A stretch of 64,000 nt of DNA. Source: a virus. This document shows, one piece after another, positions 11,441 to 64,000 of the stretch (within the stretch, counting starts at the first letter, position 1; each line of letters starts with the position of its first letter). The position numbers and the translations under genes are program-made. The DNA is taken from IMG/VR virus record IMGVR_UViG_3300035034_000989, positions 1 through 64,000 of that record; one strand, 5' to 3'. The notes under the pieces are model-generated. The model worked only from the letters and a program-made list of their open reading frames with translations. It was not told the DNA's origin and did no database searches.

Positions 11441-12118
11441 ATGTCATTTCAAAAAACAAAAGTAGACGCCGCTTTAGGCCACAAAGTACAAGCACATTTA
11501 GAATCAATCGGACTACAGACTCCGACCACTGATTTGCTAGGTGCTGACGCATCTTCAAAGATTGCTAAGATTGAAAGTAGCCTAGTCGATGTGTGGGAAA
11601 CACTAGGTATGGATCTGTCAGATGATTCGTTAATGGATACACCCAAACGCATCGCCAAGATGATGGTGCTTGAAAACTATTGGGGTTTGCTCCCTGAGAA
11701 CTTTCCTAAGTGTACCACCATATCAAACAAAATGAAGTTCGACGAAATGGTACTCGAGCGTAACATCTCTGTAATGTCAAATTGCGAACATCACGGTGTA
11801 GTAATTGACGGTTATGCACATGTTGCGTATATACCGGGCGAAAAGGTCCTTGGCTTGTCCAAGCTTAACCGAGTAGTTGAATACTTCTCAAAGCGCCCAC
11901 AGGTACAAGAGCGTCTTACCGCACAGATTTATCATGCACTAAGCTTTATCTTAGAAACTGATAATGTTGCGGTAGTAGTTAACGCAGAGCATTACTGTGT
12001 CAAAAGTCGTGGTGTCGAAGACACTAACTCGCACACGTTTACATCTTACTTGGGCGGCGTGTTCAAAACTGATCCAGCCACACGTTCTGAGTACATGTCT
12101 TTGGTTCGCAGTACCTAA
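11441..12118 (+). CDS. folE: GTP cyclohydrolase I
   Basis: DTPKR, CEHH, GLSKLNR, PQVQERLT, H.C..RG. Confidence 0.97.
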   Translation: MSFQKTKVDAALGHKVQAHLESIGLQTPTTDLLGADASSKIAKIESSLVDVWETLGMDLSDDSLMDTPKRIAKMMVLENYWGLLPENFPKCTTISNKMKFDEMVLERNISVMSNCEHHGVVIDGYAHVAYIPGEKVLGLSKLNRVVEYFSKRPQVQERLTAQIYHALSFILETDNVAVVVNAEHYCVKSRGVEDTNSHTFTSYLGGVFKTDPATRSEYMSLVRST

Positions 12119-13072: not shown

Positions 13073-13543
13073 ATGTACTATTCAACTAAGAAATTTGGTG
13101 CTATATCTACAGGCCACAGACAATTCCGCGCCGCAGAATTAAGAGACAGCAGTCGATGTGCATGGGCACATGGTTACGGTCGCTATGTAGAGTTTACATT
13201 TGGTGCATCTGAACTAGACGCCCGTGGGTGGGTAGTTGACTTCGGCGGACTACGCTTTGTCAAAGCATTCCTCGACGAGCAGTGGGATCACCGCTTGCTA
13301 TTGAGTTCAGAGGATCCGTTGCTACCGCAGTTTTTAGAATTACAAGAACTAGGTGGATGCAACATTAATGTAATGGACGCAAGCAAAGGCTGGGGTCCTG
13401 GCATTGAGCAATCGTGTAGATTTGTCTACGACCATATTGCTCCTCGTATATTCAGCGACAGCGCCGGGCGATGTTCGGTGACCAAAGTTCAAATCTGGGA
13501 ACACGACAACAACAGTGCAATATTTGTACCGGACGACTTATGA
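13073..13543 (+). CDS. queD: 6-carboxy-5,6,7,8-tetrahydropterin synthase
   Basis: HRQ...CxxxHGY, GWVVDFG, WDH, IWEH. Confidence 0.9.
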   Translation: MYYSTKKFGAISTGHRQFRAAELRDSSRCAWAHGYGRYVEFTFGASELDARGWVVDFGGLRFVKAFLDEQWDHRLLLSSEDPLLPQFLELQELGGCNINVMDASKGWGPGIEQSCRFVYDHIAPRIFSDSAGRCSVTKVQIWEHDNNSAIFVPDDL

Positions 13544-14824: not shown

Positions 14825-16024
14825 TTGAACAAAGCCGAAGTAGTTTGCTCGTTTTGCGGCAAAAACGGAAGACAAGTTAAAAAACTGGTAGCGGCACCAC
14901 CTGATATTGTCCAACACAGCGCACACATCTGCGACAACTGTATTGATATGTGCAAGGACATTATTACAAAGCCGGTAATCAAAGATTTAGAAAACATAAC
15001 ACCTGCAACAATACGTGCAAAATTAGATCAGTACGTGATAGGACAAGACGATACCAAGATATCGATTAGTGTTGCAGTTTACAATCACATAAAGCGCATC
15101 AACAATCTAGCAACTGCAAAGTTCGAAAAGTCCAATGTGTTGATGATTGGTCCAACTGGCACAGGCAAGACACTAATTGCTAAAACAGTGGCACAAGCAG
15201 TTGGCGTACCATATGCAATTATTGATGCAACATCATTGACCGAGTCCGGGTATTCCGGAGAAGATGTCGAGTCTATTGTGTATGCCTTATGCGAAAATGC
15301 AGAGTGGGACTTAAAGAAAGCACAACACGGAATAGTGTTTGTTGACGAAGTAGATAAAATTGCAAAGAAAACCGATGGTGCCAACACAGCGGTACGAGAT
15401 GTTTCAGGAGCAGGCGTACAGCAAGCATTGCTCAAATTGGTAGAAGGCAAGATAATTACAATAGAATTACCAGGAACCAACAACCGAGTAGCGTTTGACA
15501 CATCGCAGGTACTGTTTATTGCAAGCGGTGCTTACGTTGGGTTAGACGATGTAATTAATGATAGGTTGAAAACACCTAAGATAGGGTTTAATTCTGATAC
15601 TGAAACTGCATTGGTTGCCAAGGACATAGAGAGCGATGATTTAGAACAGTATGGTATGATACCGGAGTTCATAGGACGCTTTCCGATTATTACGGTGCTA
15701 GAAGAATTGGATGAAGAGTTACTTTATCGTATACTTGTCGAGCCAGAAAATTCAATTGCATCGCAGTACCAAAGTATATTTGACCTCGAGGGCGTTAAGC
15801 TTAACTTCGATGATAAATACTTTAGGATATTAGCTAAAAGCGGTTACAAAAAGAAAACTGGTGCTAGAGGTCTTAGATCAGTAATCGAACGTGATTTAAA
15901 AACAGTGCAATATGATTTGCCTGATTTAGCAAATACCCAAGACGTGGTAGCGGTAAACGTAGATGCGACAGGAAATATAAAGTGCATCAAACGAGCCAAG
16001 ACCAAAAAAGTTATTAAAGAATAA
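14825..16024 (+). CDS. clpX: Clp protease ATPase subunit ClpX
   Basis: CSFCG..C..C zinc domain, GPTGTGKT, DEVDK, RDVSG.GVQQ, IGF loop, GARGLR; TTG start. Confidence 0.96.
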   Translation: MNKAEVVCSFCGKNGRQVKKLVAAPPDIVQHSAHICDNCIDMCKDIITKPVIKDLENITPATIRAKLDQYVIGQDDTKISISVAVYNHIKRINNLATAKFEKSNVLMIGPTGTGKTLIAKTVAQAVGVPYAIIDATSLTESGYSGEDVESIVYALCENAEWDLKKAQHGIVFVDEVDKIAKKTDGANTAVRDVSGAGVQQALLKLVEGKIITIELPGTNNRVAFDTSQVLFIASGAYVGLDDVINDRLKTPKIGFNSDTETALVAKDIESDDLEQYGMIPEFIGRFPIITVLEELDEELLYRILVEPENSIASQYQSIFDLEGVKLNFDDKYFRILAKSGYKKKTGARGLRSVIERDLKTVQYDLPDLANTQDVVAVNVDATGNIKCIKRAKTKKVIKE

Positions 16025-16913: not shown

Positions 16914-17459
16914 ATGAAATACAGAGACTTAACAAACAAAGAATTAATTTTCGAAGCTGATAAAGCATGCAGGCAAGTTTCACTTCCTGTAGACGCAAAT
17001 TCACTCGAACCGGTGCTATCCAAGGAAACAATAGACGCTCATTACGGTACCCTACACCGTAACTATGTAGCTAAGGTGAACGATGGCTCCACCGACAAAT
17101 TCTTAATAGGTGGTGCAAATTTACATAACTTGTACTTCGAGCAATTTGTCGAACCCAGTACCAAAAAGCCCACCGACCGAATAAAGTTCTTAATTGAAGA
17201 TCGCTTCGGCAATTATGAAGATTTTAAAACACTGTTCAAAGACGCGGCACTGTCTATACAGGGCTCGGGATGGTGTTACCTCAGTAAAAAAGGAGAGATT
17301 AAAACTATCCAAAATCATGCAACACGACAGGATATTTGCATATTACTCGATATGTGGGAACATGCTTATTATCTGGACTACGGTCCAAACAAAAAGAAAT
17401 ACATTGATAATTCTTGGAAGATTATCAACTGGGATATTATCAATGGAAGGTTATCGTAA
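16914..17459 (+). CDS. Fe/Mn superoxide dismutase
   Basis: LEP..S.ET...HYG..H..YV, HNLY, GSGW, DMWEHAYY. Confidence 0.92.
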   Translation: MKYRDLTNKELIFEADKACRQVSLPVDANSLEPVLSKETIDAHYGTLHRNYVAKVNDGSTDKFLIGGANLHNLYFEQFVEPSTKKPTDRIKFLIEDRFGNYEDFKTLFKDAALSIQGSGWCYLSKKGEIKTIQNHATRQDICILLDMWEHAYYLDYGPNKKKYIDNSWKIINWDIINGRLS

Positions 17460-37598: not shown

Positions 37599-38293
37599 TG
37601 AAGATTGGTAACGACGATTTACCAAGTTACATGAGTTTTACATTTTCATTCACCGGAATGCGAATGGTCGGCTCAGCATTTTGCCCTACTGACTGGGATG
37701 TTGAAGTCGAGTTAATCGGCGACAACGAAGCCCATACACCAGAGCAACACACAGTTGCATTTCAGCGCATGGTATACTGGGCAGAGCTAGCGTTATCTGA
37801 TATCATTGTTATAGGTAGCGAAAACTACGATAGCATGTTAGCAAGAGAATGCGAAAACTTAGTGATGTGGTTACCTGAGAATGGATCCGACGAGTTGCTT
37901 GCACAGGCACTTCATTCGAAGTTACAAACCATTGCAGGCAAAGCAATTATCCTCGGCGAGATACGAGTTAATCCAAGCGATGCACCAACCAAGTATTTCT
38001 TTTCTCCAGTTAAGATCGGACAATACAACATTTCAAGCGAAAACAAAAATCTAACTGATGTAAGTGTTTATCACGAGCATCCTTGGTACTGTCGAAATGA
38101 TAGTTTAACATATGAGCTTATTGTTGATGATCATCAATCCAAGCAAGATTATGATGTACTACTTAAAGATTACGAAGATCCGCTTGACTTGCTCAATGCT
38201 CAGTTGTCGGAACAGTTAAACATAGGTTCGCTCGATGAAAACGAAGCTGAAATTTATCATGTAGGTGCGTCTAAACGTGGCAACCAAGAATAA
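37598..38293 (+). CDS. Conserved phage hypothetical protein
   Basis: 231 aa ORF, TAATG coupled. Confidence 0.6.
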   Translation: MKIGNDDLPSYMSFTFSFTGMRMVGSAFCPTDWDVEVELIGDNEAHTPEQHTVAFQRMVYWAELALSDIIVIGSENYDSMLARECENLVMWLPENGSDELLAQALHSKLQTIAGKAIILGEIRVNPSDAPTKYFFSPVKIGQYNISSENKNLTDVSVYHEHPWYCRNDSLTYELIVDDHQSKQDYDVLLKDYEDPLDLLNAQLSEQLNIGSLDENEAEIYHVGASKRGNQE

Positions 38294-38780
38294 CAATTCA
38301 CAGCTGGTTTACAGCGTAGACGAAGTGCTAGCAATGCTACTACGCAAAGATACCACAGGAGCGATCGTTGTAAGTGACATGGATGAGATCAAACAATTCA
38401 ATAAATACGGATCTCATCTTTCTGGTAACGTGTCGATCATCGAAGAAGATACAAGTGCAGACTTCCATGATTTACAAACAGACACCTGGAGCATACCCGA
38501 TGAATATCTTGCAATAGATGTCGACAGTTACTTGTTGGGTCGCTGTGAAAATGAAGAACAATACAATCGTGTCGAACTTGAACTCAAAGAGTTCAAACAG
38601 CGCGATCTAAGTGTGGTGCTGAACTTGATGATTTATCTTGTTGATTACTTTACTGAAAATAATATTGTATGGGGAGTCGGGCGTGGATCTAGTGCCGCTT
38701 CATTTTGTTTGTACTTAATAGGTATAAATAGAGTAAATAGTCTAGAATATGATCTCGACATAAAAGAATTTTTTAAATAA
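38265..38780 (+). CDS. Stand-alone fragment of DNA polymerase III alpha (DnaE) catalytic domain
   Basis: RVELEL..., WGVGRGSS..S..LYLIGI..V..L.Y.L...EF; ends just before the PDxDxD motif. Confidence 0.8.
   Translation: MRLNVATKNNNSQLVYSVDEVLAMLLRKDTTGAIVVSDMDEIKQFNKYGSHLSGNVSIIEEDTSADFHDLQTDTWSIPDEYLAIDVDSYLLGRCENEEQYNRVELELKEFKQRDLSVVLNLMIYLVDYFTENNIVWGVGRGSSAASFCLYLIGINRVNSLEYDLDIKEFFK
38723..38730 (+). promoter_or_regulatory. T4-late-like promoter
   Basis: TATAAATA upstream of 38792. Confidence 0.5.
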
Positions 38781-39893: not shown

Positions 39894-40826
39894 ATGAAGG
39901 AACTCTGGACGGAAAAATATCGGCCCCCTACAATGGAAGGCTATGTCTTCCGTGATCAAGCACAGAAAGAACAAGTGCAAGCATGGGTTGATAGTGGTGC
40001 AATTCCGCATTTACTTTTCTCTGGTGTACAGGGAGCCGGCAAAACAACTCTTGCCAAGTTGTTGCTCAACGAACTAAAGGCACACGCATACGATGTTAAG
40101 ATGATTAACGCATCTTCTAACAACGGTGTTGACTACATACGCGATACAGTCGAAGCATTTGCTACTGTGATGGGGTTTGGCGATTTCAAATATATTATAC
40201 TGGATGAGGCTGATTACTTGTCTCCGAACGCACAAGCGGCATTGCGTGGTGTAATGGAAAAGTACTCCAACTCGTTGCGCTTTATACTTACATGCAATTA
40301 TCCTAACAAAGTGATTCCTGCTATCCATTCACGCTGTCAGGGTTTCCACATTGCAAATCTTGACAAAACAGAATACACAGCACGCATGGCAGAAATACTT
40401 ATCACCGAAGGTGTTGAGTTCGATTTAGAGACATTGGATACGTTTGTGAAGACAACTTACCCAGACATGCGTAAGTGTATTAACTTGTGTCAGCAAAATG
40501 TTAAGAACGGTAGCTTACAAGCACCAAACGCAGACGACGGCGCTGGTGAAAGCGATTACCAACTGATGATGGTTGCATTGTTCAAAGAAAAGCGTTACAA
40601 AGAAGCACGCGACTTGGTGTGCAAGCAAGTCGCGCCGGAAGAATACGAAGACTTGTTCCGCTTCATGTATCAGAACTTAGAGTTCTGGGCAGACGGCGAT
40701 GAAAACAAAGAAGATCAGTGCATACTGGTTATTCGTAACGGACTTGTAAAACATGTTTCCTGCGCCGATTCAGAGATAAACGTGTCGGCAACCATGATCG
40801 AACTAGAACAAGTAGCAAGGAGCTAA
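39894..40826 (+). CDS. Clamp loader subunit (RFC small/gp44-like)
   Basis: WTEKYRP, G.QGAGKTT, INAS, LDEAD, SRC. Confidence 0.95.
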   Translation: MKELWTEKYRPPTMEGYVFRDQAQKEQVQAWVDSGAIPHLLFSGVQGAGKTTLAKLLLNELKAHAYDVKMINASSNNGVDYIRDTVEAFATVMGFGDFKYIILDEADYLSPNAQAALRGVMEKYSNSLRFILTCNYPNKVIPAIHSRCQGFHIANLDKTEYTARMAEILITEGVEFDLETLDTFVKTTYPDMRKCINLCQQNVKNGSLQAPNADDGAGESDYQLMMVALFKEKRYKEARDLVCKQVAPEEYEDLFRFMYQNLEFWADGDENKEDQCILVIRNGLVKHVSCADSEINVSATMIELEQVARS

Positions 40827-45760: not shown

Positions 45761-48013
45761 ATGTCATCAAGTTCACCACAAGAGTTGTTCCAACGCATAC
45801 TGTCTAATAGCATGGACATACAAAGCAAGAAACAAGTTATTTACTTGTCTCCGGAAGTGTTTACACATGCATTAATGCGTGAGAAAACAGTTGCAGACAT
45901 GATTGCAGAATTAGGTGGCGATCCTAAAATGGCAAAAGAAGAGTTAGAGAAAGCAATTGAAGCACAGCCTAAAGCAGGCTTTGGCGGCAACAGTGGCAAA
46001 ATGTCTACTACCATAGACAACATTATTAAAAAGCAGACAGCAATGCTTGCAACTGCCGATGCTTCGGACGTCACTGAAAAAGACGTATTGTTTGCACTGA
46101 TACTTGATATCATTGATGCAGACCTTACAGATAATCCAGCCAAAGATATCTTAGCAAAGCATGGCGCAACACGCGATGCAGTCGACGACTACCGCATGCA
46201 AAACGGCGATGAAGCAGAGTCTATTCTAGACAAGTACTGTGTCAACCTTAACACAGAATCAGCTAACGGTCAAATCGATCCAGTTATTGGTCGCGAGCAA
46301 GAAGTTGCTGATACAATCGAAATACTAGCACGCCGCAAAAAGAACAACGTTGTTTATGTAGGCGAGCCAGGTGTAGGTAAAACTGCAATTGCAGAAGGAC
46401 TTGCACGTCAAATTGAAAAAGGCGATGTGCCAGAAGCAATAGCTGGCATGGTAGTTTACTCGCTAGACGTTGGCACACTTGTTGCAGGCACCAAGTTCCG
46501 CGGAGAACTTGAAGAACGCTTTAAGAAGATACTTAAAGAAGTCGAAGCCAAAGGCAACGTAATAATGTTTATCGATGAGATGCACATGATCATGGGCGCA
46601 GGCGCTACAAGCGGTGGCACCATGGACGTTAGTAACATGCTTAAACCTAGCTTGGCAAACGGCAAGATCAAACTTGTTGGTGCCACAACAGAAGATGAGT
46701 TCGTAGAGCATCTTGAGAAAGATCGTGCATTGATGCGTCGGGTGCAGAAGATTACAATTAACGAACCTAACGTGCCAGACACCAAGCGCATAGTCCACGG
46801 CATTGTCAAGTACTACACTGAATTCCACGGTGTTGAATATGACGAAGGCGTAGTTGAAACAGCCGTTGATTTAGCAGATCGTTACATCACACAGCGATTC
46901 TTTCCAGACAAAGCAATTGACATCATAGATGCAACTGGTGCCACTGCTAAACTTGCAGGAATAAAGTCAGTAGACATTGCGCGGGTTATTAGCGCAGTGA
47001 GCAAGATGTCTAAAATTCCAGTTGAGATGATTGACGTTAAAGAAAACGATTTGATCAAAAGCATGCCAGCAAAAATGCGCAATGAAGTGTTCGGGCAAGA
47101 CCACGCAATTAAGGTTCTTGAAGATGCTATTATCATTGCGCAGTCAGGATTGCGTGATAGCAACAAGCCGATTGGTAACTTCTTATTTGTTGGGCCAACT
47201 GGCACTGGTAAGACACACATTTGTAAACGACTAGCGGCCAACATGGGAACCAAGATGGTACGCTTTGATATGTCGGAATACCAAGAACGTCATACAGTAT
47301 CTAAGTTAATTGGTGCTCCTCCAGGTTATGTAGGACACGGTGACGGCAAGAACGGCGACGGTCAGTTAATTTACGAAGTATCTAACAATCCTAACTGTGT
47401 GCTACTGCTAGACGAGATTGAAAAAGCGGCTCCGGAAGTTGCACAGCTATTGCTACAGGTAATGGACGATGGTCGTTTAACATCTGCAAGCGGTAAAACA
47501 GTTGACTTCAGTAACGTTATACTGATAATGACTTCTAACTTAGGAGCCGCAGATGCCGACAAGCAAGGTATTGGCTTTGGTGCAACCGACTTCAATGCAA
47601 GCGCAATAAACGAAGCAGTTAAGAAGTACTTTCCACCAGAGTTCCGAAATCGTGTAGATCACATCATACAGTTCAACAAGCTTGAGCAAGAGCAAGTTGA
47701 GACACTGGTTGATGTTGAAATGCAAAAAATGAATGCCGTGCTTATTAAGCAAGGCGTACAGGCTACCATGTCTTTAGAAGCTCGGGCATGGTTGGCTAAA
47801 GAAGGCTACCAGCCAGCACTAGGTGCGCGACCTTTGAGTCGTGTGTTTGAGAGCAATGTTAAGTTACCCGTATCTAGAGAGATACTGTTTGGTAAACTAG
47901 CAGGCGGTGGCATTGTGCATATTGACTTTGATAACACCAAGCAGGTAATACTGATTGATGTTACAAACGAAGGTGCGATAGTTGAGCTACAAGCTGATGA
48001 ACTAACTGCTTAA
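45761..48013 (+). CDS. clpA: Clp protease ATPase subunit ClpA
   Basis: Two AAA+ modules (GEPGVGKT, GPTGTGKT), GAPPGYVG, IGF loop, no M-domain. Confidence 0.92.
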   Translation: MSSSSPQELFQRILSNSMDIQSKKQVIYLSPEVFTHALMREKTVADMIAELGGDPKMAKEELEKAIEAQPKAGFGGNSGKMSTTIDNIIKKQTAMLATADASDVTEKDVLFALILDIIDADLTDNPAKDILAKHGATRDAVDDYRMQNGDEAESILDKYCVNLNTESANGQIDPVIGREQEVADTIEILARRKKNNVVYVGEPGVGKTAIAEGLARQIEKGDVPEAIAGMVVYSLDVGTLVAGTKFRGELEERFKKILKEVEAKGNVIMFIDEMHMIMGAGATSGGTMDVSNMLKPSLANGKIKLVGATTEDEFVEHLEKDRALMRRVQKITINEPNVPDTKRIVHGIVKYYTEFHGVEYDEGVVETAVDLADRYITQRFFPDKAIDIIDATGATAKLAGIKSVDIARVISAVSKMSKIPVEMIDVKENDLIKSMPAKMRNEVFGQDHAIKVLEDAIIIAQSGLRDSNKPIGNFLFVGPTGTGKTHICKRLAANMGTKMVRFDMSEYQERHTVSKLIGAPPGYVGHGDGKNGDGQLIYEVSNNPNCVLLLDEIEKAAPEVAQLLLQVMDDGRLTSASGKTVDFSNVILIMTSNLGAADADKQGIGFGATDFNASAINEAVKKYFPPEFRNRVDHIIQFNKLEQEQVETLVDVEMQKMNAVLIKQGVQATMSLEARAWLAKEGYQPALGARPLSRVFESNVKLPVSREILFGKLAGGGIVHIDFDNTKQVILIDVTNEGAIVELQADELTA

Positions 48014-50446: not shown

Positions 50447-53368
50447 ATGTACGTTGATGCTCTACACATAAGAAAAGACGAAATTGTTCGTATCGTCGAA
50501 AGAGTTAACGGAGAGCGCGTTATCAAGGAGTTCAAGCCAGACTGGCATTTCTTCATTGATGATCCACGCGGTACCCATCGAACAATTTATGGCAAACCCT
50601 GCAAGAAGATTGATCCTTCGAACATGACTGAGCGTGCAAAAATGCTCAATCAGTTTCATGGCAAGAAGTATGAGTCAGACATGAACGTTGTAATGCGATG
50701 CCTAGAACAAGAATACCCAGACTGCCCCAATCCAGACATGCATGTTGCGTTTTTCGATATCGAAGTCGACTTCGATCCAGTTAATGGTTATTCAGAACCT
50801 GCCGATGCACTTACACCTGTTACATCTATATCTATCTACTTACAGTGGTTAGGGCAGATGATATGTTTGGCTGTGCCTCCGAAAGGTGTTAAGCGTGCCG
50901 AAGCTGACAAGATTGCAGAGGAAGTAGGCGACACAATCATCTTTGATACCGAGAAAGAAATGCTCAAAGCATTCCTGGACGTAATTGAAGATGCAGATGT
51001 ATTAAGCGGATGGAATTCAGAAGCATACGATATTCCGTATACTGTGAATCGAATTATCAAGAAGCTTGGCAAAACAGAAACACGTAAAATGTGCCTGTGG
51101 AATGAATTGCCTAAGTTGCGCAAGTTTGAACGTGGCTCCAAAGAGCAACCAACATACGACTTGATAGGGCGAGTGCATTTGGATTACATGCAATTGTACA
51201 AAAAGTATAACTATGAAGAACGACACAGTTATGCACTGAACGCAATTGCAGAAGCTGAGCTAGGTGAAAAGAAAGTTGATTACAGCGGAACACTGGATCA
51301 CCTTTATAACCACGACTTTAAAAAGTTCTTGGAATACAACATACAGGATACAATGCTATTGCACAGACTAGATGTCAAGTTGCAGTACATAGACTTGTGT
51401 AGTTCTATTGCACATGCCAACGGCGTATTGATTCCGACAACAATGGGCACAGTTGCAATGATTGACCAAGCGGCAACCATTGAAGCTCATCAACGTGGCT
51501 TTGTTGTTCCTAACAAACAAAGGCATGACGGCGAAGTGAGAGCGGCAGGTGGCTGGGTAGCAACTCCAAAGAAGGGTGCTCAGAAATGGGTAGGCTCTGC
51601 GGATTTAAACTCCTTGTACCCGGCTGTTATACGTGCGCTGAACATGAGTCCAGAGACCATCATAGGTCAACTGGACTTGTCAGGAACAACTCGAGCAATA
51701 CACGAGTTTGAGTCAGCACGCAAAGCAAACACATTTGCAATGTGGTGGAACGATAGATTCAATCCACTTGAAATGGATTACTATCACGAAAACGATAACT
51801 CACAAAAGCTCAAGCTAAGATTTGAAAATGGTGACGAGTATCATATCACAGGCGCCGAACTGCGAAAGATCATATTCGAAGGTGGCAATCCTTGGTCCAT
51901 ATCGGCCAACGGCACTATCTTTAAAAATGATACGCAAGGAATCATACCCGGCTTGTTAGCACGCTGGTACAGCGAACGTAAGTTTCTTAAAAGTTTTGGT
52001 GCCGCATACAACATGGTAAAGCTAAACGAAAAAGATGCAGGCTTCAATGTGCCGGCTTCGTTGTTTACCAATGCTGACATAGACGACAGTGTTATCAAAG
52101 CTGATCCGTTTAACACTGCTGAAGCATTGCAGATCAAGGTATTCAAAAAGTTGATCGAAGAAGCGGATCGTGATAGCATTGTTGCATACATGAACAGGCA
52201 AAATCTCGAAGTTGATGAAAACGGCAAAGTACATTTGCGCGATCAGAAACTGGTGCATGCATTGTTAGCGTTCTGGGACAAGAGACAGTTGGTTAAAAAG
52301 ATTAACTTGAACTCGGCGTATGGCGCACTGTTAAACGCAGGCTCAAGATTCTTTGACCAACGCATAGGACAGAGCACAACACTAACAGGGCGTAACATCA
52401 CAAAACACATGGCAGCCAAGACCAATGAAATGCTCACAGGCGTTTACGATCATTACGGCGAGTGTGCATTGTATGGTGATACTGACAGCACGTACTACAG
52501 CGCATATCCTGCACTCAAGGATGATATCGACAGTGGAAAGATTCCGTGGAACAAAGACATTGCAATTGAAGTGTATGACACAATCTCTGAACAGGTTAGT
52601 GATACATTCCCGCAATTCTTGTTAGACACCTTTAATATACCGTTTGAGAAATCAGTTGGTGTTATTGTGTCGTCACGTGAGATAGTCGCAGAATCGGCCT
52701 TATTTATTAAGAAAAAACGCTATGCGGCACTGGTTTATGATGATGAAGGTCAGCGTAAAGACATTGGCGGTAGCATCGGCAAAGTGAAAGCAATGGGCCT
52801 TGACTTAAGACGTTCTGATACTCCACAGTTTGTACAGAAGTTCTTGTTAACAGTGTTAACAGACACACTGCTTTACAAAGGCGAAGAGCATGTTATATCT
52901 TACATCAAAGATTTTAAAGACAAGTTCGATGCCATGAAGCCGTGGGAAAAAGGTACACCCAAAGCAGTCAACGGTCTCACCAAGTACAAGGATCGTAGAG
53001 ATGCGGCATTGCTTGCCAAGATGCAAGGGCAGAAAGTACAACTAACAATACCAGGTCATGTACAAGCAAGCATGAACTGGAACCTGCTTAGAAGAATAAA
53101 CAATGATCATCACACAGGACCAATAGGTGACGGACAGAAGATCATCGTTTGTAGATTAAGAGAAACAGCCGATAACGTCATGAAGTCAGTTGCTTACCCG
53201 ATTGATGAATCACACTTGCCGGATTGGTTCTTGGAACTTCCGTTCGATGAAGAAGCAATGCGCGAAGCTATTGTGGATCAGAAGATCAGAAACTTATTAA
53301 GTGTGATGCCATGGGACTTAACAAAAGCTTCCAAACAGGCAGTACACTTCGATTCACTATTTGGATAA
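50447..53368 (+). CDS. Family B DNA polymerase (gp43-like)
   Basis: Exo DIE, WNSEAYD, YNIQD; DLNSLYP, KKINLNSAYG, YGDTDS, KKRYA; C-terminal FDSLFG. Confidence 0.97.
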   Translation: MYVDALHIRKDEIVRIVERVNGERVIKEFKPDWHFFIDDPRGTHRTIYGKPCKKIDPSNMTERAKMLNQFHGKKYESDMNVVMRCLEQEYPDCPNPDMHVAFFDIEVDFDPVNGYSEPADALTPVTSISIYLQWLGQMICLAVPPKGVKRAEADKIAEEVGDTIIFDTEKEMLKAFLDVIEDADVLSGWNSEAYDIPYTVNRIIKKLGKTETRKMCLWNELPKLRKFERGSKEQPTYDLIGRVHLDYMQLYKKYNYEERHSYALNAIAEAELGEKKVDYSGTLDHLYNHDFKKFLEYNIQDTMLLHRLDVKLQYIDLCSSIAHANGVLIPTTMGTVAMIDQAATIEAHQRGFVVPNKQRHDGEVRAAGGWVATPKKGAQKWVGSADLNSLYPAVIRALNMSPETIIGQLDLSGTTRAIHEFESARKANTFAMWWNDRFNPLEMDYYHENDNSQKLKLRFENGDEYHITGAELRKIIFEGGNPWSISANGTIFKNDTQGIIPGLLARWYSERKFLKSFGAAYNMVKLNEKDAGFNVPASLFTNADIDDSVIKADPFNTAEALQIKVFKKLIEEADRDSIVAYMNRQNLEVDENGKVHLRDQKLVHALLAFWDKRQLVKKINLNSAYGALLNAGSRFFDQRIGQSTTLTGRNITKHMAAKTNEMLTGVYDHYGECALYGDTDSTYYSAYPALKDDIDSGKIPWNKDIAIEVYDTISEQVSDTFPQFLLDTFNIPFEKSVGVIVSSREIVAESALFIKKKRYAALVYDDEGQRKDIGGSIGKVKAMGLDLRRSDTPQFVQKFLLTVLTDTLLYKGEEHVISYIKDFKDKFDAMKPWEKGTPKAVNGLTKYKDRRDAALLAKMQGQKVQLTIPGHVQASMNWNLLRRINNDHHTGPIGDGQKIIVCRLRETADNVMKSVAYPIDESHLPDWFLELPFDEEAMREAIVDQKIRNLLSVMPWDLTKASKQAVHFDSLFG

Positions 53369-53452: not shown

Positions 53453-54199
53453 ATGGTTTTTAACATCCTATCAGACATAGTAAAACACACACATGGCTTG
53501 GGCTTTATCGAAGCAGTAAAAGTCACTGGCTCACCAGACTCAATTAAAATTGAAGCAATGGAAGAGAACCGTACAGTTGTTGTACAGGGCACCATCAATA
53601 CATCAATTGATAACTTGCAGGGAACTGTTGGCTTATCAAGAATGGGCGTGCTTGCGGGCTACTTGAACTTCGATCGATTTAATTCGAAAGACGCATCGGT
53701 AGTAATTGAAACACGCGATCGCAACGGCACTGAAACTCCATGTGAAGTAACATTTGACTCGGGCTCAGGCCACAGCGGTCAGTATCGCTTTATGGCGGCA
53801 GAAGTTGCAGAAGAGCAAATCCAGGTACCACCTTTCAAGGGCGCTGAGTGGATGGTCACTGTTGATCCAAGCACAACTGCAATCAAAGATTTATCTACCA
53901 TGGACAGCATCCTGGGTAGTTATGAAGATTCGTTTGTTGCACGCACAGTTAACGGCAACTTGGAGTTCCACATTGGCGCAGGCTCAACAGACCGTTCTAA
54001 GATTACATTTGCAAAGAATGTAAAAGGCACATTAAAGCATGCATGGCGTTTTCCAATTGGGCACTTTCTTGCAATCATGAAGTTGCACAGAACGTCTGAG
54101 ACAACACACATCAGCTTCAGTGATATGGGCGCACTTAAAATTGAAGTGAACTCAGGCCTCGGTACGTACACTTACATCATCCCTGCGAGAGCTAGCTAG
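53453..54199 (+). CDS. Sliding clamp (gp45/PCNA-like)
   Basis: 248 aa alternating beta/alpha pattern, C-terminal Y.Y.IPA; directly after PolB, with a clamp loader in the window. Confidence 0.7.
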   Translation: MVFNILSDIVKHTHGLGFIEAVKVTGSPDSIKIEAMEENRTVVVQGTINTSIDNLQGTVGLSRMGVLAGYLNFDRFNSKDASVVIETRDRNGTETPCEVTFDSGSGHSGQYRFMAAEVAEEQIQVPPFKGAEWMVTVDPSTTAIKDLSTMDSILGSYEDSFVARTVNGNLEFHIGAGSTDRSKITFAKNVKGTLKHAWRFPIGHFLAIMKLHRTSETTHISFSDMGALKIEVNSGLGTYTYIIPARAS

Positions 54200-54229: not shown

Positions 54230-55798
54230 ATGACAGAAAAATTCGATCCATTTAATTTAACTGATTCGCAAGAAGACCATTGGGCTGTGCATTTGCCAGC
54301 ATTTAGTGGCTTCTACATTCAGCAAATGGCAAAACTAGACGACAACCCGGATCACTACGGTCCGGATCGGTTCGGACCCACATTCGACAAAGGCCACCGT
54401 GGCCTAGATTTTTATAACGGCGGTGGATACTTTACTTATAAGTGGGGCTTGTATTCAGCAGGACACGCCAAGTTAGATATTGAAAAGTCTAAAGAAAGCG
54501 AACGCTTTGTGCAAAGTCGCAAGCGAGATGGTTCTACATTCCTTCTTGGTGACAGTGGCGGATTCCAGATTGCCAAGGGCGCTGGCCACTTCAAGAACGT
54601 TGATTGGAGTGATTTTGAAGGCGCTGGTGGCGACAAAATACGCGAAAAGGTATTGCGTTGGCTTGAAGAAACTTCTGACTTCTCTATGACACTGGACATT
54701 CCAGCGTTTGCGGCAGAGCCACCATTGAGTCTCAAAACTGGCTTGACATCATTTGGCGACACACTTGATTTAAGCTTGCTTAACTTGTACTACTTTGTTA
54801 AGAATCGTGTGCCAGGCAAAACAAAGTTCTTGAATGTGTTGTCGGGTACCAACTTTGAAAACTCTAGTCGTTGGTACGAAGGTGTTAAAGCATTTAGTGA
54901 CCCGATCGAAGTTGAGAAGATGGACTTTGAACGTGAGCGCACATTAGAAGGCTACGCCTTTGCTGGTATTAACATGAAGCACATGCCCAGTGTACTTGCA
55001 CGCATGGCAGACTTGTTACGAGACGACCTGATCAAAGACAAAGAGTGGATACACTTCTTGGGCATTGGTCGACTAGACTGGGCTTGTTACTTGACATCAA
55101 TACAACGTCAACTTAGGAACTACGAACCTAAGATAACAGTAAGCTTCGATTGCGCCAGCGCATTCCTGGCAGTGGCAAAAGGGCAGATGTATTCGAACCC
55201 TAGTTATACGCCTAAGCGATTTGGCTACAACATGAACAGTGCAATTGATGATCGCAATCTTAAAGAAAGCACATTGCAGATGCCGTTCCCAGGACCTATT
55301 GCAAGTCGCATGAACTTGGGTCATATGTGTCGCTTAGGCCCAGGTGAGCACAACAAGCAAGGCAAGCTTAACAACACAAGCTGGGACACTGCATCGTATT
55401 TGTTAGGTATGGCCAGCAACGTTTACATACACGTTAACGCTGTACAAGAAGCAAATCGCATGGCTGACATGGAGTACACCAAGTTTAACTTGAGTTACAA
55501 AGATTGGTCAAAGCAGAAGCGTGGTTCGCAAGTTAACGAAGTTAGTGACTTTGTTCCTGCAAACATATTGTTCTTTAACTCGTTTGTTGAGTCTTTCTTT
55601 GACAACAGCATGTCGCATGAAGACCGCATGAGCATGATTGAAGACAATCGACAGTTTCTTGAAGCCATCAGCTTTGGTGGACAGAAAGGCAACGTGTTTG
55701 GCAATCTGTTTGATATGTCAGACATAACAACAACAGAAACCGAAGCAGTTGATGCAATTGCTTCATACGCCGATGTTGATGACCTAGACGAGGATTAA
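54230..55798 (+). CDS. TGT-fold guanine transglycosylase (DpdA-like)
   Basis: GDSGGFQ, MTLDIP, IHFLG and SFD motifs of the TGT family; folE/queD/queE in the same window. Confidence 0.75.
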   Translation: MTEKFDPFNLTDSQEDHWAVHLPAFSGFYIQQMAKLDDNPDHYGPDRFGPTFDKGHRGLDFYNGGGYFTYKWGLYSAGHAKLDIEKSKESERFVQSRKRDGSTFLLGDSGGFQIAKGAGHFKNVDWSDFEGAGGDKIREKVLRWLEETSDFSMTLDIPAFAAEPPLSLKTGLTSFGDTLDLSLLNLYYFVKNRVPGKTKFLNVLSGTNFENSSRWYEGVKAFSDPIEVEKMDFERERTLEGYAFAGINMKHMPSVLARMADLLRDDLIKDKEWIHFLGIGRLDWACYLTSIQRQLRNYEPKITVSFDCASAFLAVAKGQMYSNPSYTPKRFGYNMNSAIDDRNLKESTLQMPFPGPIASRMNLGHMCRLGPGEHNKQGKLNNTSWDTASYLLGMASNVYIHVNAVQEANRMADMEYTKFNLSYKDWSKQKRGSQVNEVSDFVPANILFFNSFVESFFDNSMSHEDRMSMIEDNRQFLEAISFGGQKGNVFGNLFDMSDITTTETEAVDAIASYADVDDLDED

Positions 55799-55799
55799 C

Positions 55800-55964
55800 A
55801 TGACCGAGCAAGAGGTAATAGACCTGATAACACAAAACCTATCTATAAATATAGATCAGGTAACCGAGTTCGGGCCAGTTGAAACAGTTGTAGTAAAGCT
55901 CGAACTATTTGGCAAAGTTATCTCCGAGCATAATTGTTATTTACCATCACCACACAAGGAATAA
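55800..55964 (+). CDS. Small hypothetical protein (54 aa)
   Basis: SD GAGGA; ORF fills the gap exactly. Confidence 0.5.
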   Translation: MTEQEVIDLITQNLSINIDQVTEFGPVETVVVKLELFGKVISEHNCYLPSPHKE

Positions 55965-55966
55965 AA

Positions 55967-57160
55967 ATGAGAAAACTTTACTACTGCGGCCTTGAACAGC
56001 TAGAATCCCGATACACTTTACAACTACAAAATTGGAACGAACGTGTGTTTGATAAACGCGAAATTAGCTATGTCTCTGTTCTTGGTAAAAACTTAGACGA
56101 CAAGAAGCAAATCGTCACCGGCAGTGTGCTTGATGCACACGGCCGGACATACTACAGCATGACGCAAATGGCTGAGCTAGTCAAACTCATGCAACAGGGC
56201 GAAATAACAAACCAGGATGTTATTTTCTTTGAAGATATGTTTACACCTGGTATTGAGTCACTTGCGTATATCATGGACCAAGTTGAAGACTGTTACAAAC
56301 CTAAAGTGTTTGTTCGTTGCTTGGCACAAACATTTGATCCAGATGACTTTGTTATACGCGAAGGCATGTTTAAATGGATGCGCAAGTTTGAAGAAATGAC
56401 TGCGGCGTTTGTGGATGGTATTATTGTTGCTAACGAAGAATTCGTTGCACATTTGCGCATAGCTGGCATTGAATGTCCGATTTACGTAAGCGGGTTACCG
56501 TTCGGCAAGGAAGAAGTTGCAAGTCGCATGCCAACCAATCGCCCGTTAAAAGAACGAACCAAACGTGTCACGTTTGCGGCACGCTGGGACGATGAGAAGC
56601 AACCACACTTCTTCATGGACTTAATTGAAGAGGTTTACAAGACGCATCCTGAAATTGAGTTTTGTGTATGTACAGGTGGACCACGGCTCAAGGGCAACAA
56701 CGAAGCGGCCATAGTTCGTGCCCGTGAGATGGAGTACAGTAAAAAAGCAAACTTTAAGATTTACCAGAATCTCAAGAAGGATGATTACTATCGCATACTG
56801 GCTGACACCACTGTATTATTTAATTGTGCATTGCAAGACTGGACATCCAATACAGTAAGCGAAGCTGATACACTCGGTGCATTGACATTGTATCCGGCAT
56901 ATCGTAGCTTTCCTGAAGTGTTTGCAAACAACCACAAGCATTTGTATGCACCGTGGAGCATCGATGATGCAATCGAAAAGCTGTGTGCCATGTTTTGTGA
57001 TGTCGAATCTGACAATTTAGATAGTTACAGCATCGGCAAGATAAGCGATTGGCAAAACGGAACGATCGATCGCACACTAGATATCATGCTAGGAAATGGT
57101 GAACACTGGCGTCGAAACGGCAATGACTATCGCAAACATGTAGCAACACATAAGTTTTAA
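55967..57160 (+). CDS. GT-B (GT4-like) glycosyltransferase
   Basis: FAARWDDEKQP, Y..IL, QD.TS.T..EA, P....FPE motifs. Confidence 0.85.
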   Translation: MRKLYYCGLEQLESRYTLQLQNWNERVFDKREISYVSVLGKNLDDKKQIVTGSVLDAHGRTYYSMTQMAELVKLMQQGEITNQDVIFFEDMFTPGIESLAYIMDQVEDCYKPKVFVRCLAQTFDPDDFVIREGMFKWMRKFEEMTAAFVDGIIVANEEFVAHLRIAGIECPIYVSGLPFGKEEVASRMPTNRPLKERTKRVTFAARWDDEKQPHFFMDLIEEVYKTHPEIEFCVCTGGPRLKGNNEAAIVRAREMEYSKKANFKIYQNLKKDDYYRILADTTVLFNCALQDWTSNTVSEADTLGALTLYPAYRSFPEVFANNHKHLYAPWSIDDAIEKLCAMFCDVESDNLDSYSIGKISDWQNGTIDRTLDIMLGNGEHWRRNGNDYRKHVATHKF

Positions 57161-59401: not shown

Positions 59402-59739
59402 TGTATATTAAAGTGAAAAGTCGTAGTCTCAAGCGGTTACAAAAGATAGAACGCAATTGCCGTTGGCATCGGTTCTTTGTTATATGGCCACGCAAAATAT
59501 CAACTGTGAGCGGGTACAATGAATTTGCTTTCTTGACTTTTGTTTATCGTAAAGCTAAACTGTGTGTAAGTAGACATTACGAGGACTATTCGCTGTCTAT
59601 ATATTTTAATTTTGTATATGCCAAGACCGAACAAGAAGCATCGATGAGTATATTGTCGGCAGGCGACGAAATCAAGTTCCGTGATGAAGAAACGCAGAAC
59701 TATTACGAGCAATTAAAGGAACAAACTAATGAAGACTAA
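59401..59739 (+). CDS. Hypothetical protein, WHR.F family
   Basis: WHRFFVIWP...FL..VYRK. Confidence 0.55.
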   Translation: MYIKVKSRSLKRLQKIERNCRWHRFFVIWPRKISTVSGYNEFAFLTFVYRKAKLCVSRHYEDYSLSIYFNFVYAKTEQEASMSILSAGDEIKFRDEETQNYYEQLKEQTNED

Positions 59740-60199
59740 ACAATTAACATACGAGCAAATTACTGCACTCGTGCAACATCTAATCGTTGAAATTGAAGCG
59801 AGCAACTGGGAACCAGAGATTATCGTGGGTGTGTCCCGTGGTGGGCTATTACCTGCCATACTGCTCAGCAATCATTTTGAATGCCCGATGCAACCGTTGG
59901 TATGGTCTGCAAAAGATCCTAGTGGCAACGAGTGTAACTGCTGGTTACCAGAAGACGCGATTGCCGGCAAGCACACTCTTATAGTGGAAGACATAATTGA
60001 CACAGGCGAGACCATTAAACAAATTATGGAAGACTGGAATTCGTCAGTACACAAACACATTGACTGGGATTCAGTTGTAAAGGTTGCATGCTTGCACAAG
60101 CGTAACGCAACCGAGTTTGTGCCAGCTTATGTTGCTCACATATTAGATAACAATGATCATCAAGTTTACCCATGGGAGAATACAAATGCCAACCAATAA
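59729..60199 (+). CDS. Purine phosphoribosyltransferase (Gpt-like)
   Basis: GVSRGG, LIVEDIIDTGET PRPP loop, YPWE. Confidence 0.88.
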   Translation: MKTKQLTYEQITALVQHLIVEIEASNWEPEIIVGVSRGGLLPAILLSNHFECPMQPLVWSAKDPSGNECNCWLPEDAIAGKHTLIVEDIIDTGETIKQIMEDWNSSVHKHIDWDSVVKVACLHKRNATEFVPAYVAHILDNNDHQVYPWENTNANQ

Positions 60200-61150: not shown

Positions 61151-62062
61151 ATGGCAGACGAATATAGATACACAGAGCTTTTTCGTTCTTTCCAAGGCGA
61201 AGGAACACACACTGGTAAAAACACATTATGGCTACGCTGGTTCATGTGTAACTTGACTTGTAACGGATTCGGACAAGCAGATCCTACTGATCCAAGCACG
61301 CATGTACTGCCATATGAAACGTTTGACATAATCGATGTAACAGATTTAGGACAACTTCCTGTTTTTGAATTCGGCTGTGACAGTTCTTACTCATGGGCTA
61401 AAAAATATAAACACTTGGCAAGCAATCACACAGCAGTTGAGATTGCAGATCGACTAGAAGAGAACCTGCGTTCTGTTTTTAACCCGCATGGCAAGTTCTT
61501 GCATCCGTTAAGCGGCGCTGAAACTCATATGTGCTTTACAGGCGGTGAACCCATGATGCGTAACAGTCAGCGTGGCATAGAAGCAGTCATGCGCGAGTTG
61601 CACACCAGAGGCAACATGCCCAACAATGTAACAATAGAAACCAACGGCACACAGAGAATGACCAAAGAGTTTGGCGAGTTCTTGGTATGGTTCGAAAGAA
61701 ATTCAGACAACGGCGAATGGTTCTGGAGTTTTAGTCCTAAGCTGTTTAACACAAGTGGCGAAACTGCACGCAAGGCAATTAAGCCAGCTGAAGTTGCACA
61801 TTACCAAGAGTACTCACAAGCAGGGCACTTGAAGTTTGTTGTTAACGGAACGACAGCCACGTGGGAAGAGCTAGAAGCGGTTGTTAAAGAGTTTCGAGCA
61901 GAAGGCATTGAATTTCCAGTTTGGATTATGCCGGTCGGTGCAACCAAAGAAGCCCAGGAAACGGAGCAAGTAAAGATAATTGTTGCTGAAACCTTGAGCA
62001 GAGGTTATAATGTTAGTGGAAGACTCCACGCACACATGCTGGGCAACGAATTAGGAACATAA
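61151..62062 (+). CDS. queE: 7-carboxy-7-deazaguanine synthase (radical SAM)
   Basis: E.F.S.QGEG..TG, CNLTC...CDS, TGGEP, IETNGT, SPKL, LKFV, RLH. Confidence 0.92.
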   Translation: MADEYRYTELFRSFQGEGTHTGKNTLWLRWFMCNLTCNGFGQADPTDPSTHVLPYETFDIIDVTDLGQLPVFEFGCDSSYSWAKKYKHLASNHTAVEIADRLEENLRSVFNPHGKFLHPLSGAETHMCFTGGEPMMRNSQRGIEAVMRELHTRGNMPNNVTIETNGTQRMTKEFGEFLVWFERNSDNGEWFWSFSPKLFNTSGETARKAIKPAEVAHYQEYSQAGHLKFVVNGTTATWEELEAVVKEFRAEGIEFPVWIMPVGATKEAQETEQVKIIVAETLSRGYNVSGRLHAHMLGNELGT

Positions 62063-62877: not shown

Positions 62878-63473
62878 ATATTTTAAACACCAGTATACCT
62901 GGTTGGACATCACCTGCTAAGTTAGAATGTCTTGCTGGATATGCGCGCCAAGTACCCGAGAACGGCTGGATTGTCGAAGTAGGCACCTTCTGCGGAAGAT
63001 CAGCGTTTGTACTGGCTGCCAATTCGTTGCCTTCTGTTAAGGTGACATGTATTGATCCCTGGTGTTTTAATGACGGTGACAGGCTGGTTGCGAAACACTA
63101 CCTTACCACATACGGCGACAGAGATTGCCACTATTCTCAACAGACGTGTGTTGAAAATCTTGCACAGTTTGGAGATCGGATAGAGCTTATAAAAACAACC
63201 AGTCCTTACTTTCACACTGACTTTGCTGAACGCAAGCCTAATTTGTTTTTTATAGATGGTGACCACAGCGGCGACGTTATTAAGCGAGAGCTAAAACTGT
63301 ATTACAATCATTTGGCACCAGGTGGCACAATGTTAATAGACGATTATCAACATCCTGTACATAAAGATTTAAGTAGAGAAGTAAGAAGCTTTGTGCTACA
63401 ATACAACTTAGATCTAGTTATAGTTAAAGAGAAAGATCCAAACTCACAATTCGCAATAATCGAGAAATTATGA
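62874..63473 (+). CDS. Class I SAM-dependent methyltransferase (Methyltransf_24-like), probable ATA start
   Basis: In-frame upstream extension gives IPGW...IVEVGTFCGRS; also FIDGDHS and GG..L.DDY. SD GGAGA precedes ATA at 62874. Confidence 0.75.
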   Translation: MNILNTSIPGWTSPAKLECLAGYARQVPENGWIVEVGTFCGRSAFVLAANSLPSVKVTCIDPWCFNDGDRLVAKHYLTTYGDRDCHYSQQTCVENLAQFGDRIELIKTTSPYFHTDFAERKPNLFFIDGDHSGDVIKRELKLYYNHLAPGGTMLIDDYQHPVHKDLSREVRSFVLQYNLDLVIVKEKDPNSQFAIIEKL

Positions 63474-64000
63474 AATACATACACATTGATAGCATGAACA
63501 TATTCTTTAGAAGTGTTCACACTTTAAACCCGAACGCTGGCATTGATGCGATGAGCGGCATGGCGCTACACACAATCTTTAACTCAGTTAGAAAGGTATG
63601 GCGCAAGTTTGGTGCAGACCATGCAGTGTTTCATACAGAAGGTCGTTCGTGGCGCAAGGACTTTTATCCACGCTACAAGCTTAACCGAAAAGTGGCACAA
63701 CTGGGAAAAACCGAAACAGAACGCGAAACAGATGAAATACTATTTGAAGCGTATGCTGATATTATTGCCTTCCTCAAAGAGAAGACCAATACAACTGTGC
63801 TACGCTGTTCGACTGCTGAGGCAGATGATACAATTGCATTGTTCATACAGTCGCATCCGGACGATGAGCACATAATTATATCAACTGACTCGGATTTTAT
63901 ACAGTTGTTAAAGCACGATAACGTTACAATCTACAACGGCGTGTCTGATGTTACAATGACCAAAGCTGGACTAACAGATGAGAAAGGTCGTGTACTTGAG
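63470..64000 (+). CDS. 5'-3' exonuclease / T4-type RNase H (FEN family), 3'-truncated
   Basis: ID.MN, EGRSWRK.FY..YK.NR, EADD, ISTDSDF.QL; not in the ORF track because it runs off the window. Confidence 0.9.
   Translation, partial: MKYIHIDSMNIFFRSVHTLNPNAGIDAMSGMALHTIFNSVRKVWRKFGADHAVFHTEGRSWRKDFYPRYKLNRKVAQLGKTETERETDEILFEAYADIIAFLKEKTNTTVLRCSTAEADDTIALFIQSHPDDEHIIISTDSDFIQLLKHDNVTIYNGVSDVTMTKAGLTDEKGRVLE

Follow-up and report, generated by a model that had tools for sequence, protein, structure and literature searches.

A polymerase-like peptide in the flexible tail of a DpdA-like transglycosylase is predicted to dock on a phage's own sliding clamp

The 64,000-nucleotide stretch analysed here, referred to as the window (positions 1-64,000 of IMG/VR virus record IMGVR_UViG_3300035034_000989), is part of a 104-kb contig, a fragment of a giant phage estimated to represent 29% of the virus genome. 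One run of genes on the + strand encodes a family B DNA polymerase (PolB), a 248-amino-acid protein with the predicted fold of a sliding clamp and a 522-amino-acid protein with the predicted fold of the tRNA-guanine transglycosylases (TGT), here termed a DpdA-like transglycosylase. The results indicate that a clamp-interaction peptide in the flexible tail of the transglycosylase probably tethers the enzyme to the phage's own clamp, binding being predicted. The features on which this interpretation depends are as follows.

50447..53368, + strand: PolB, 973 amino acids (PF00136, E 1.8e-26; PF03104, E 2.8e-20; phrog_262, E 4.7e-193).
53345..53365, + strand: C-terminal peptide HFDSLFG of PolB, a presumed clamp-binding tail, read from the translation; terminal LFG as in T4 gp43.
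53453..54199, + strand: sliding clamp by predicted fold, 248 amino acids, a two-domain PCNA/gp45-type protomer (phrog_12062, function unknown).
54230..55798, + strand: TGT-fold DpdA-like transglycosylase, 522 amino acids, with a catalytic body (residues 1-483) and a disordered tail (residues 484-522).
55688..55726, + strand: predicted clamp-contacting segment of the transglycosylase, residues 487-499 (KGNVFGNLFDMSD), from the interface of the complex model; core FGNLFDM at 55697-55717.
55727..55795, + strand: acidic, low-complexity tail end of the transglycosylase, with a predicted local distance difference test score (pLDDT) below 50.

The gap between the clamp and transglycosylase genes is 30 nucleotides. 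The arrangement is not peculiar to the window. In 80 viral loci encoding relatives of the transglycosylase, which were used to compare both synteny and tails, the clamp gene lies upstream of the transglycosylase gene on the same strand without exception (80/80), at a median gap of 4 nucleotides, and a polymerase C-terminus is encoded upstream of the clamp gene in 79. A megablast search of the region against GenBank phages returned no match.

PolB ends ...KQAVHFDSLFG. Positions 55697-55717 encode F490-G-N-L493-F494-D-M496 of the transglycosylase, preceded by a valine codon at 55694-55696. The original prediction started from this likeness, between the HFDSLFG end of PolB and VFGNLFDM placed ahead of an acidic disordered tail in the protein encoded directly after the clamp, and both the translation and the low pLDDT of the tail (below 50) confirm it. 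The 26 residues that follow the motif include 10 Asp or Glu and no Lys or Arg. A pattern as loose as F..LF is common: it occurs 13 times in the 162 open reading frames (ORFs) of the contig (33,305 amino acids), or 0.39 times per 1000 amino acids, and by chance about one in five proteins of 522 amino acids would carry it. The narrower pattern F[DGNSE][SN]LF[GD] is found among the ORFs of the contig only in PolB and the transglycosylase. Likewise, the complete 287-kb genome of Pseudomonas phage PA5oct has no long ORFs with an in-frame F[DN]xLF other than those of the polymerase and the transglycosylase. The significance of the motif lies in its conservation and co-variation rather than in a single occurrence.

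The original prediction was to be given up if the motif proved not to be conserved among homologues. In a set of 119 full-length homologues, in which a fixed ISFG anchor ends the folded body, a [LIMFV][FW] pair lies 5-14 residues past the anchor in 117, compared with 24% of shuffled tails, and this ground for giving up the prediction falls away. The strict pattern [FLMIVY]xx[LIMF]F is present in 93 of the 119 and in 3.7% of shuffled tails, and F494 is kept in at least 90% of 52 homologues. The stretch past the motif is acidic across homologues (38% Asp plus Glu, 5% Lys plus Arg). It is absent from L002 (Vibrio phage 2.275.O) and from the L064, L071 and L080 lineages, whose transglycosylases end with the motif, as the polymerase does. 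A second element is seen near the end of many homologue tails, consisting of acidic residues followed by L-x-x-L-E/D (for example DDEDLVKLEE and NDEKLTALE); it is missing from the lineages in which the motif is the very C-terminus.

The peptides of the two enzymes can be compared genome by genome, as in the following examples (stop marks the C-terminus).

Window: polymerase end HFDSLFG-stop; transglycosylase tail VFGNLFDM.
L002 (Vibrio phage 2.275.O): polymerase end NNTDLFDW-stop; transglycosylase tail NNNDLFGW-stop.
L071: polymerase end EVMDNFFEF-stop; transglycosylase tail EVMDTFFEF-stop.
L080: polymerase end ALDEFFEF-stop; transglycosylase tail VLDEFFEF-stop.
L061: polymerase end YLETLFDFTKR-stop; transglycosylase tail YKGLFDFTEQ.
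L008 group: polymerase end GFIDDLFS-stop; transglycosylase tail KSKDLFDT.
L033 group: polymerase end TFHSLFDFDD-stop; transglycosylase tail TFGSLFETEE.

The tail motif and the polymerase end of the same genome change together between lineages, with LF, FFEF, NNxDLFxW and LFDFT types. To put a number on this, each pair was scored by the best ungapped 6-residue BLOSUM62 match between the last 14 residues of the polymerase and the transglycosylase tail, and permuted pairs were scored in the same way. Same-genome pairs averaged 17.44 versus 15.49 for permuted pairs across 36 clusters at 90% identity (p 0.0006), and 20.83 versus 16.71 across 12 clusters at 70% identity (p 0.004).

Two further proteins are of interest as possible clamp clients. 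The only other ORF of the contig with a terminal F..LF lies outside the window (98979-100775); it encodes 598 amino acids ending ...LERDTFVKLFI-stop. Pfam gave no match for it and PHROGs a marginal one only, and it is a possible additional client. An RNaseH/FEN homologue, which starts in the window (63470-64000) and continues to 64507 in the contig, was checked for the same reason and lacks a polymerase-type peptide. It is 47% identical to the RNaseH of PA5oct and ends ...TEFASILNAGYTAKEV; the PA5oct protein ends ...DEFAKLLNAKP. Both homologues share EFAxLLNA near the C-terminus, which might be another docking motif.

Because sequence searches gave no identity for the 248- and 522-amino-acid proteins, their structures were predicted, using alignments of natural homologues. 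The 248-amino-acid protein has no Pfam or NCBIfam match, its PDB sequence matches are at chance level only, its PHROGs family is phrog_12062, and hhalign detected no similarity to T4 gp45 (probability 0.9%). Its AlphaFold model (pLDDT 94, predicted template-modelling score 0.90) consists of two similar domains, and the best 50 Foldseek matches listed for it in the PDB are all PCNA, with E values from 2e-11 and TM scores of 0.63-0.72. By this predicted fold, the protein is a PCNA/gp45-type sliding clamp. The window also encodes a gp44-type clamp loader, the cognate type of loader for a clamp of this kind:

39903..40523, + strand: clamp-loader large subunit, T4 gp44 homologue (matched region; E 1.8e-22, 34% identity, in a 317-amino-acid open frame).

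Homologues of the clamp have been annotated as 'structural protein' in PA5oct and 'hypothetical protein' in Vibrio phage 2.275.O. The clamp columns that line the predicted peptide pocket vary with the class of motif, reading KVPPFKGAxW, SDMGAL and YILPA with LF-type motifs and KDIxFKGAEF, NNKGLL and YLLPAK with FF-type motifs, a comparison that is confounded by phylogeny.

As the original prediction had proposed, the clamp trimer was modelled with the transglycosylase peptide, using three copies of the clamp, tail residues 468-522 and alignments for both partners. The interface score ipSAE was 0.66, 0.62 and 0.66 for the trimer with the tail, and 0.00 for the best of three controls; in calibration, 58 of 80 solved complexes and 2 of 110 mismatched pairs attained the mark by which this score is read. 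At least 42% of contacts recur between runs. A single protomer is contacted, its residues 40-43, 124-131 (the interdomain connector), 225-227 and 242-247 (the C-terminal strand) facing tail residues 487-496 and 498-499. The modelled pose puts the tail peptide into the canonical clamp pocket, which lies beneath the interdomain connector, and supports binding. The predicted contact residues (approximately 40-43, 124-131 and the C-terminus) occupy positions like those of the PCNA-interacting protein (PIP) box site on PCNA, and gp45-binding peptides lie at the same site.

It is conceivable that the shared peptide is functional but docks PolB and the transglycosylase on some other partner, such as the host beta clamp, the clamp loader or the single-stranded DNA-binding protein (SSB). 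F-[DN]-S-L-F resembles the pentapeptide recognised by the bacterial beta clamp (consensus QL[SD]LF), an acidic tail with a hydrophobic tip recalls SSB-type tails, and co-variation reveals a shared constraint on the two peptides but not the identity of the partner. Against this stand the invariable position of the phage's own clamp gene upstream of the transglycosylase gene, with the polymerase before it in 79 of 80 loci, and the presence of a gp44-type loader. In addition, the PolB end resembles the gp45-binding end of T4 gp43, pocket residues of the phage clamp change with the motif class, and the model docks the peptide in the pocket of the phage clamp, whereas a score of 0.00 is obtained when the clamp is replaced by an unrelated protein. 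Finally, the hosts differ widely, yet the motif classes follow phage lineages. Docking on a different partner is considered unlikely, and the phage clamp is the preferred partner.

The predicted structure of the 522-amino-acid protein is that of a TGT. The model has an overall pLDDT of 88.8, falling below 50 for residues 484-522, where only a short helix is predicted at residues 489-493. Every one of the 50 listed Foldseek matches is a tRNA-guanine transglycosylase (E from 4e-7), and VIA-align superimposes 306 residues on a TGT (Z 20.1, root-mean-square deviation 4.4 Å), covering residues 27-377 of the Zymomonas mobilis chain. GDSGGFQ (D108) and SFDC (D307) are invariant in 52 homologues. E. 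coli Tgt has counterparts in the same order, DSGGFQ (D89) and MFDC (D264), and also GYAxxG and LGxG; the equivalence of the catalytic aspartates is based on motif order and fold, not on residue-level superposition. The family to which the protein belongs is very large: of 8,000 candidates scored, 6,384 proteins have E <= 0.001, and all of these lack a functional name. A profile of 52 sequences of the family found no match in the PDB, and the PF01702 profile found none in PA5oct or in Campylobacter phage CP220. CP220 is reported to encode DpdA3; the family profile had no match in this phage, and inspection of its QueC-PolB-clamp-FolE region revealed no obvious DpdA3. The label DpdA-like is used because sequence comparison with the PADLOC models and with the DpdA3 phage CP220 revealed no membership in the described DpdA subfamilies. 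The protein is a new, unnamed branch of the TGT superfamily.

The surrounding genes point to 7-deazaguanine. Three genes of its synthesis are found in the window:

11441..12118, + strand: GTP cyclohydrolase I (FolE), the first step of 7-deazaguanine synthesis (PF01227, E 9.6e-58).
13073..13543, + strand: QueD/6-carboxytetrahydropterin synthase (PF01242, E 1.3e-19; TIGR03367, E 3.9e-9, below cut-off).
61151..62062, + strand: QueE-like radical-SAM enzyme (7-carboxy-7-deazaguanine synthase), from weak NCBIfam matches and PA5oct homology.

The Radical_SAM Pfam model has no match in the 104-kb contig. The QueE-like gene was recognised because it has weak matches to five QueE NCBIfam models (best E 5e-10, none reaching its cut-off) and because it is 35% identical (E 2.6e-48) to a PA5oct gene annotated QueE in a syntenic position. 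The closest cultured relatives are jumbo phages: PA5oct with its kin at 45% identity, Vibrio phage 2.275.O at 30% and Sinorhizobium phage Phosso at 28%. The order of polB, clamp homologue and transglycosylase recurs in PA5oct and Vibrio phage 2.275.O, with genes for 7-deazaguanine synthesis within a few kilobases; QueE adjoins the transglycosylase homologue in PA5oct, and QueF, QueC and FolE lie within 6 kb of it in Vibrio phage 2.275.O. In Phosso, the transglycosylase gene follows that of a 240-amino-acid 'virion structural protein', which BLAST did not recognise as a clamp; the same gene order is probably present there also. A 'deazaguanine synthesis/incorporation system' was listed for PA5oct by Iyer et al. 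(PMC7824862). PA5oct DNA resists enzymes with G-containing sites, and a modified G has been proposed (preprint, PMC12191111). Because of its fold, its motifs, the 7-deazaguanine gene context and the proposed G modification of PA5oct DNA, the 522-amino-acid protein is best read as a DpdA-like DNA transglycosylase by predicted fold and context, its enzyme activity being a prediction.

Several neighbouring genes deserve mention. A phosphoribosyltransferase (PF00156, E 1.7e-16) encoded at 59729-60199, inside the deazaguanine cluster, is also present in PA5oct and could salvage the guanine released by base exchange. Directly after the transglycosylase, at 55934-57160, is a gene for a GT-B-like glycosyltransferase (PF00534, E 1.2e-4, below cut-off), syntenic with PA5oct EST35_0317, which hints at further decoration of the inserted base. 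The genes for QueC, PolB, the sliding clamp and FolE also intermingle within a single run in CP220, whose DNA contains a 7-deazaguanine; the polymerase there has a different terminal peptide, ETLEEW-stop. Elsewhere in the window, the only match of a 171-amino-acid protein (38265-38780, ending KEFFK-stop) is to the DNA polymerase III alpha NTPase domain (PF07733, E 1.5e-10), and the protein fits the split mini-DnaE of group 2.2 jumbo phages described by Iyer et al. (PMC7824862). Auxiliary genes unrelated to the present finding encode a ClpX-like ATPase with a zinc finger (14825-16024), an Fe/Mn superoxide dismutase (16914-17459) and a 750-amino-acid protein (45761-48013) that resembles a ClpA/B-type ATPase on visual inspection.

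A mechanism can be proposed in which we infer not only clamp binding but also a DNA substrate, the identity of the base and a coupling to replication. The transglycosylase would exchange guanine in phage DNA for 7-deazaguanine made by the phage FolE, QueD and QueE. Its tail peptide, with the core F490-x-x-L493-F494, would be of the kind found at the end of the phage PolB. It would dock on one protomer of the PCNA/gp45-like trimeric clamp, in a hydrophobic pocket flanked by the two domains, covered by the interdomain connector and adjacent to the clamp C-terminus. Because the clamp loader would place the clamp at replication forks and the trimer would offer three pockets, tethering could concentrate the enzyme on newly made phage DNA, let it slide and tie base exchange to replication. 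A broader reading joins these elements: clamp tethering would give this family of jumbo-phage transglycosylases fast modification specific to phage DNA, with the clamp, loaded only at phage forks, serving as an address label that sets phage DNA apart from host DNA, a distributive enzyme turned into a sliding one, and the acidic tail acting as a DNA mimic that holds the enzyme off DNA until it is docked. This broader reading is speculative, and we hold it to be rather doubtful as a whole. If it were true, 7-deazaguanine insertion would in effect take place during replication, with a level of G replacement set in dependence on the tail.

Several observations weigh against tethering of a DpdA-like enzyme to the clamp. 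With 13 occurrences of F..LF in the contig, the single occurrence in the transglycosylase is not significant if taken alone. In mean score the co-variation effect is modest, and the loci share phylogenetic ancestry. The co-variation is also imperfect, with M-W in the transglycosylase versus L-F in the polymerase in several lineages (for example L050, L055, L067 and L074). Clustering by single linkage at 60% identity gave a result that was not significant (p 0.34), a test without power because only six groups remain. In the complex model, the tail has a pLDDT of 44-46, and its own fold is uncertain; the docking score may in part be the model's memory of PCNA-PIP and gp45-peptide complexes, since such complexes have been solved.

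Alternatively, FxxLF could be a conserved part of the enzyme that serves, for example, as a lid, as an autoinhibitory element or as a dimer contact, in which case its resemblance to the polymerase end would be coincidental or compositional. In favour of this, F..LF alone is common, the segment lies only about 10 residues past the folded body, co-variation loses significance at coarse clustering, and the MW variants do not match their polymerases. The segment is nevertheless predicted to be disordered, and the motif is rare in shuffled tails. Moreover, coincidence does not explain the near-identical ends in several lineages, as in the pairs EVMDNFFEF/EVMDTFFEF and NNTDLFDW/NNNDLFGW. A role confined to the enzyme itself seems improbable, and a clamp-docking peptide is the better reading of the motif.

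The remaining points against the proposal concern the chemistry. The 522-amino-acid protein has no match by sequence in Pfam, PHROGs, NCBIfam, PADLOC or the PDB, and hhalign assigned only 16% probability to a relationship with E. coli Tgt. It lacks the CxCxxC...H zinc site that characterises TGT; across the 52 homologues, Cys and His residues are invariant or nearly so only at H79, H275, C286 (50/52), C367 and H401. The QueC Pfam model has no match in the contig, which covers about 29% of the genome. It could be argued that the protein binds the clamp but performs another TGT-fold chemistry, such as base excision or exchange for a different base, or is an inactive DNA-binding factor. The lack of sequence-level membership in TGT or in any DpdA subfamily compared and the missing zinc site are consistent with this, as are the GT-B-like glycosyltransferase and unknown enzymes whose genes adjoin that of the transglycosylase. 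Opposed to it are the invariance of both catalytic Asp motifs in the 52 homologues, the company of FolE, QueD and QueE in the window, in PA5oct and in Vibrio phage 2.275.O, where QueF, QueC and FolE are the genes within 6 kb, and the behaviour of PA5oct DNA as if its G were modified (PMC12191111). A different activity is accordingly given very little weight, and 7-deazaguanine exchange remains the favoured prediction. Taken together, the PCNA/gp45 fold, the TGT fold with its Asp motifs, conservation, co-variation and the complex model provide computational support for the original prediction that the base-exchange enzyme docks on the sliding clamp.

The proposed docking has a close counterpart in phage T4. 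The original prediction cited the binding of T4/RB69 gp43, gp33 and gp55 to gp45 through C-terminal hydrophobic peptides, and the T4 record agrees for two of them: gp43 terminates in EEKASLDFLFG, and SLDFLY is found in gp55 six residues short of its end. For gp43, the C-terminus has been reported as the gp45-binding element (PMC6212786). In the work of Shi et al., T4 ligase was shown to bind gp45 with a peptide in an internal flexible loop, EPEGLDFLFD, which is like the gp43 end; the dissociation constant is approximately 11 µM, and a crystal structure was solved (PMC6212786). T4 ligase thus directly sets a precedent for a clamp client, other than the polymerase, with an internal copy of the polymerase peptide. 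Like the gp45 clients (gp43, the ligase loop and gp33/gp55), the transglycosylase has a short hydrophobic-aromatic peptide in a flexible region that resembles the end of the cognate polymerase; as in T4 ligase the peptide is internal, and as in gp45 clients it is predicted to occupy an outer-face pocket of one clamp protomer. Unlike those clients, the transglycosylase is predicted to be a DNA base-exchange (hypermodification) enzyme, a class absent from the reported gp45 clients, and the DNA-modifying alpha- and beta-glucosyltransferases of T4 have no such peptide at their ends. The phage clamp also differs from gp45 in that it has no detectable sequence similarity and resembles PCNA by fold only. 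The novelty is the client, a DNA base-exchange enzyme, since the gp45/PCNA-type docking system is already known.

Like phage DpdA1-4 (PMC6884629, PMC10516641), the transglycosylase has a TGT fold, catalytic aspartates and a genomic link to FolE, QueD and QueE, and its predicted role is likewise the insertion of 7-deazaguanine into DNA after replication. Unlike DpdA, it has no Pfam TGT or PADLOC sequence match and its family profile finds nothing in CP220; it is also longer (522 amino acids), lacks the CxCxxC zinc motif and carries a clamp-type tail. A 2023 survey described DpdA insertion as post-replicative, with an efficiency that varies greatly between subfamilies, G replacement ranging from under 1% to 100% (PMC10516641). 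A full-text literature search for DpdA and 'sliding clamp' retrieved no paper on such a link, judged by titles. A clamp-docking peptide would be a concrete, testable answer, for one very large unannotated family, to the questions of how DpdA-type enzymes find DNA and why G replacement differs so much between subfamilies. It would also identify the transglycosylase so far missing from PA5oct-like therapeutic phages, in which the DNA is proposed to carry modified G (PMC12191111). Given that the peptide is short and both it and the pocket can be mutated, they offer a route to the effect of modification level on escape from restriction.

A further parallel is found in eukaryotes, where PCNA clients such as DNMT1 and UNG2 modify or repair DNA behind the fork and are recruited through the PIP box, QxxLxxFF. 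As with DNMT1 and UNG2 on PCNA, an enzyme that marks or edits bases would be recruited to a sliding clamp by a short peptide. The phage motif differs from the PIP box in having no Q and no FF at +7/+8, and the predicted reaction is base exchange in a phage setting rather than methylation or excision. If the docking prediction is true, the transglycosylase would become the first demonstrated clamp client among phage DNA-hypermodification enzymes, and a prokaryotic-virus parallel to DNMT1 on PCNA.

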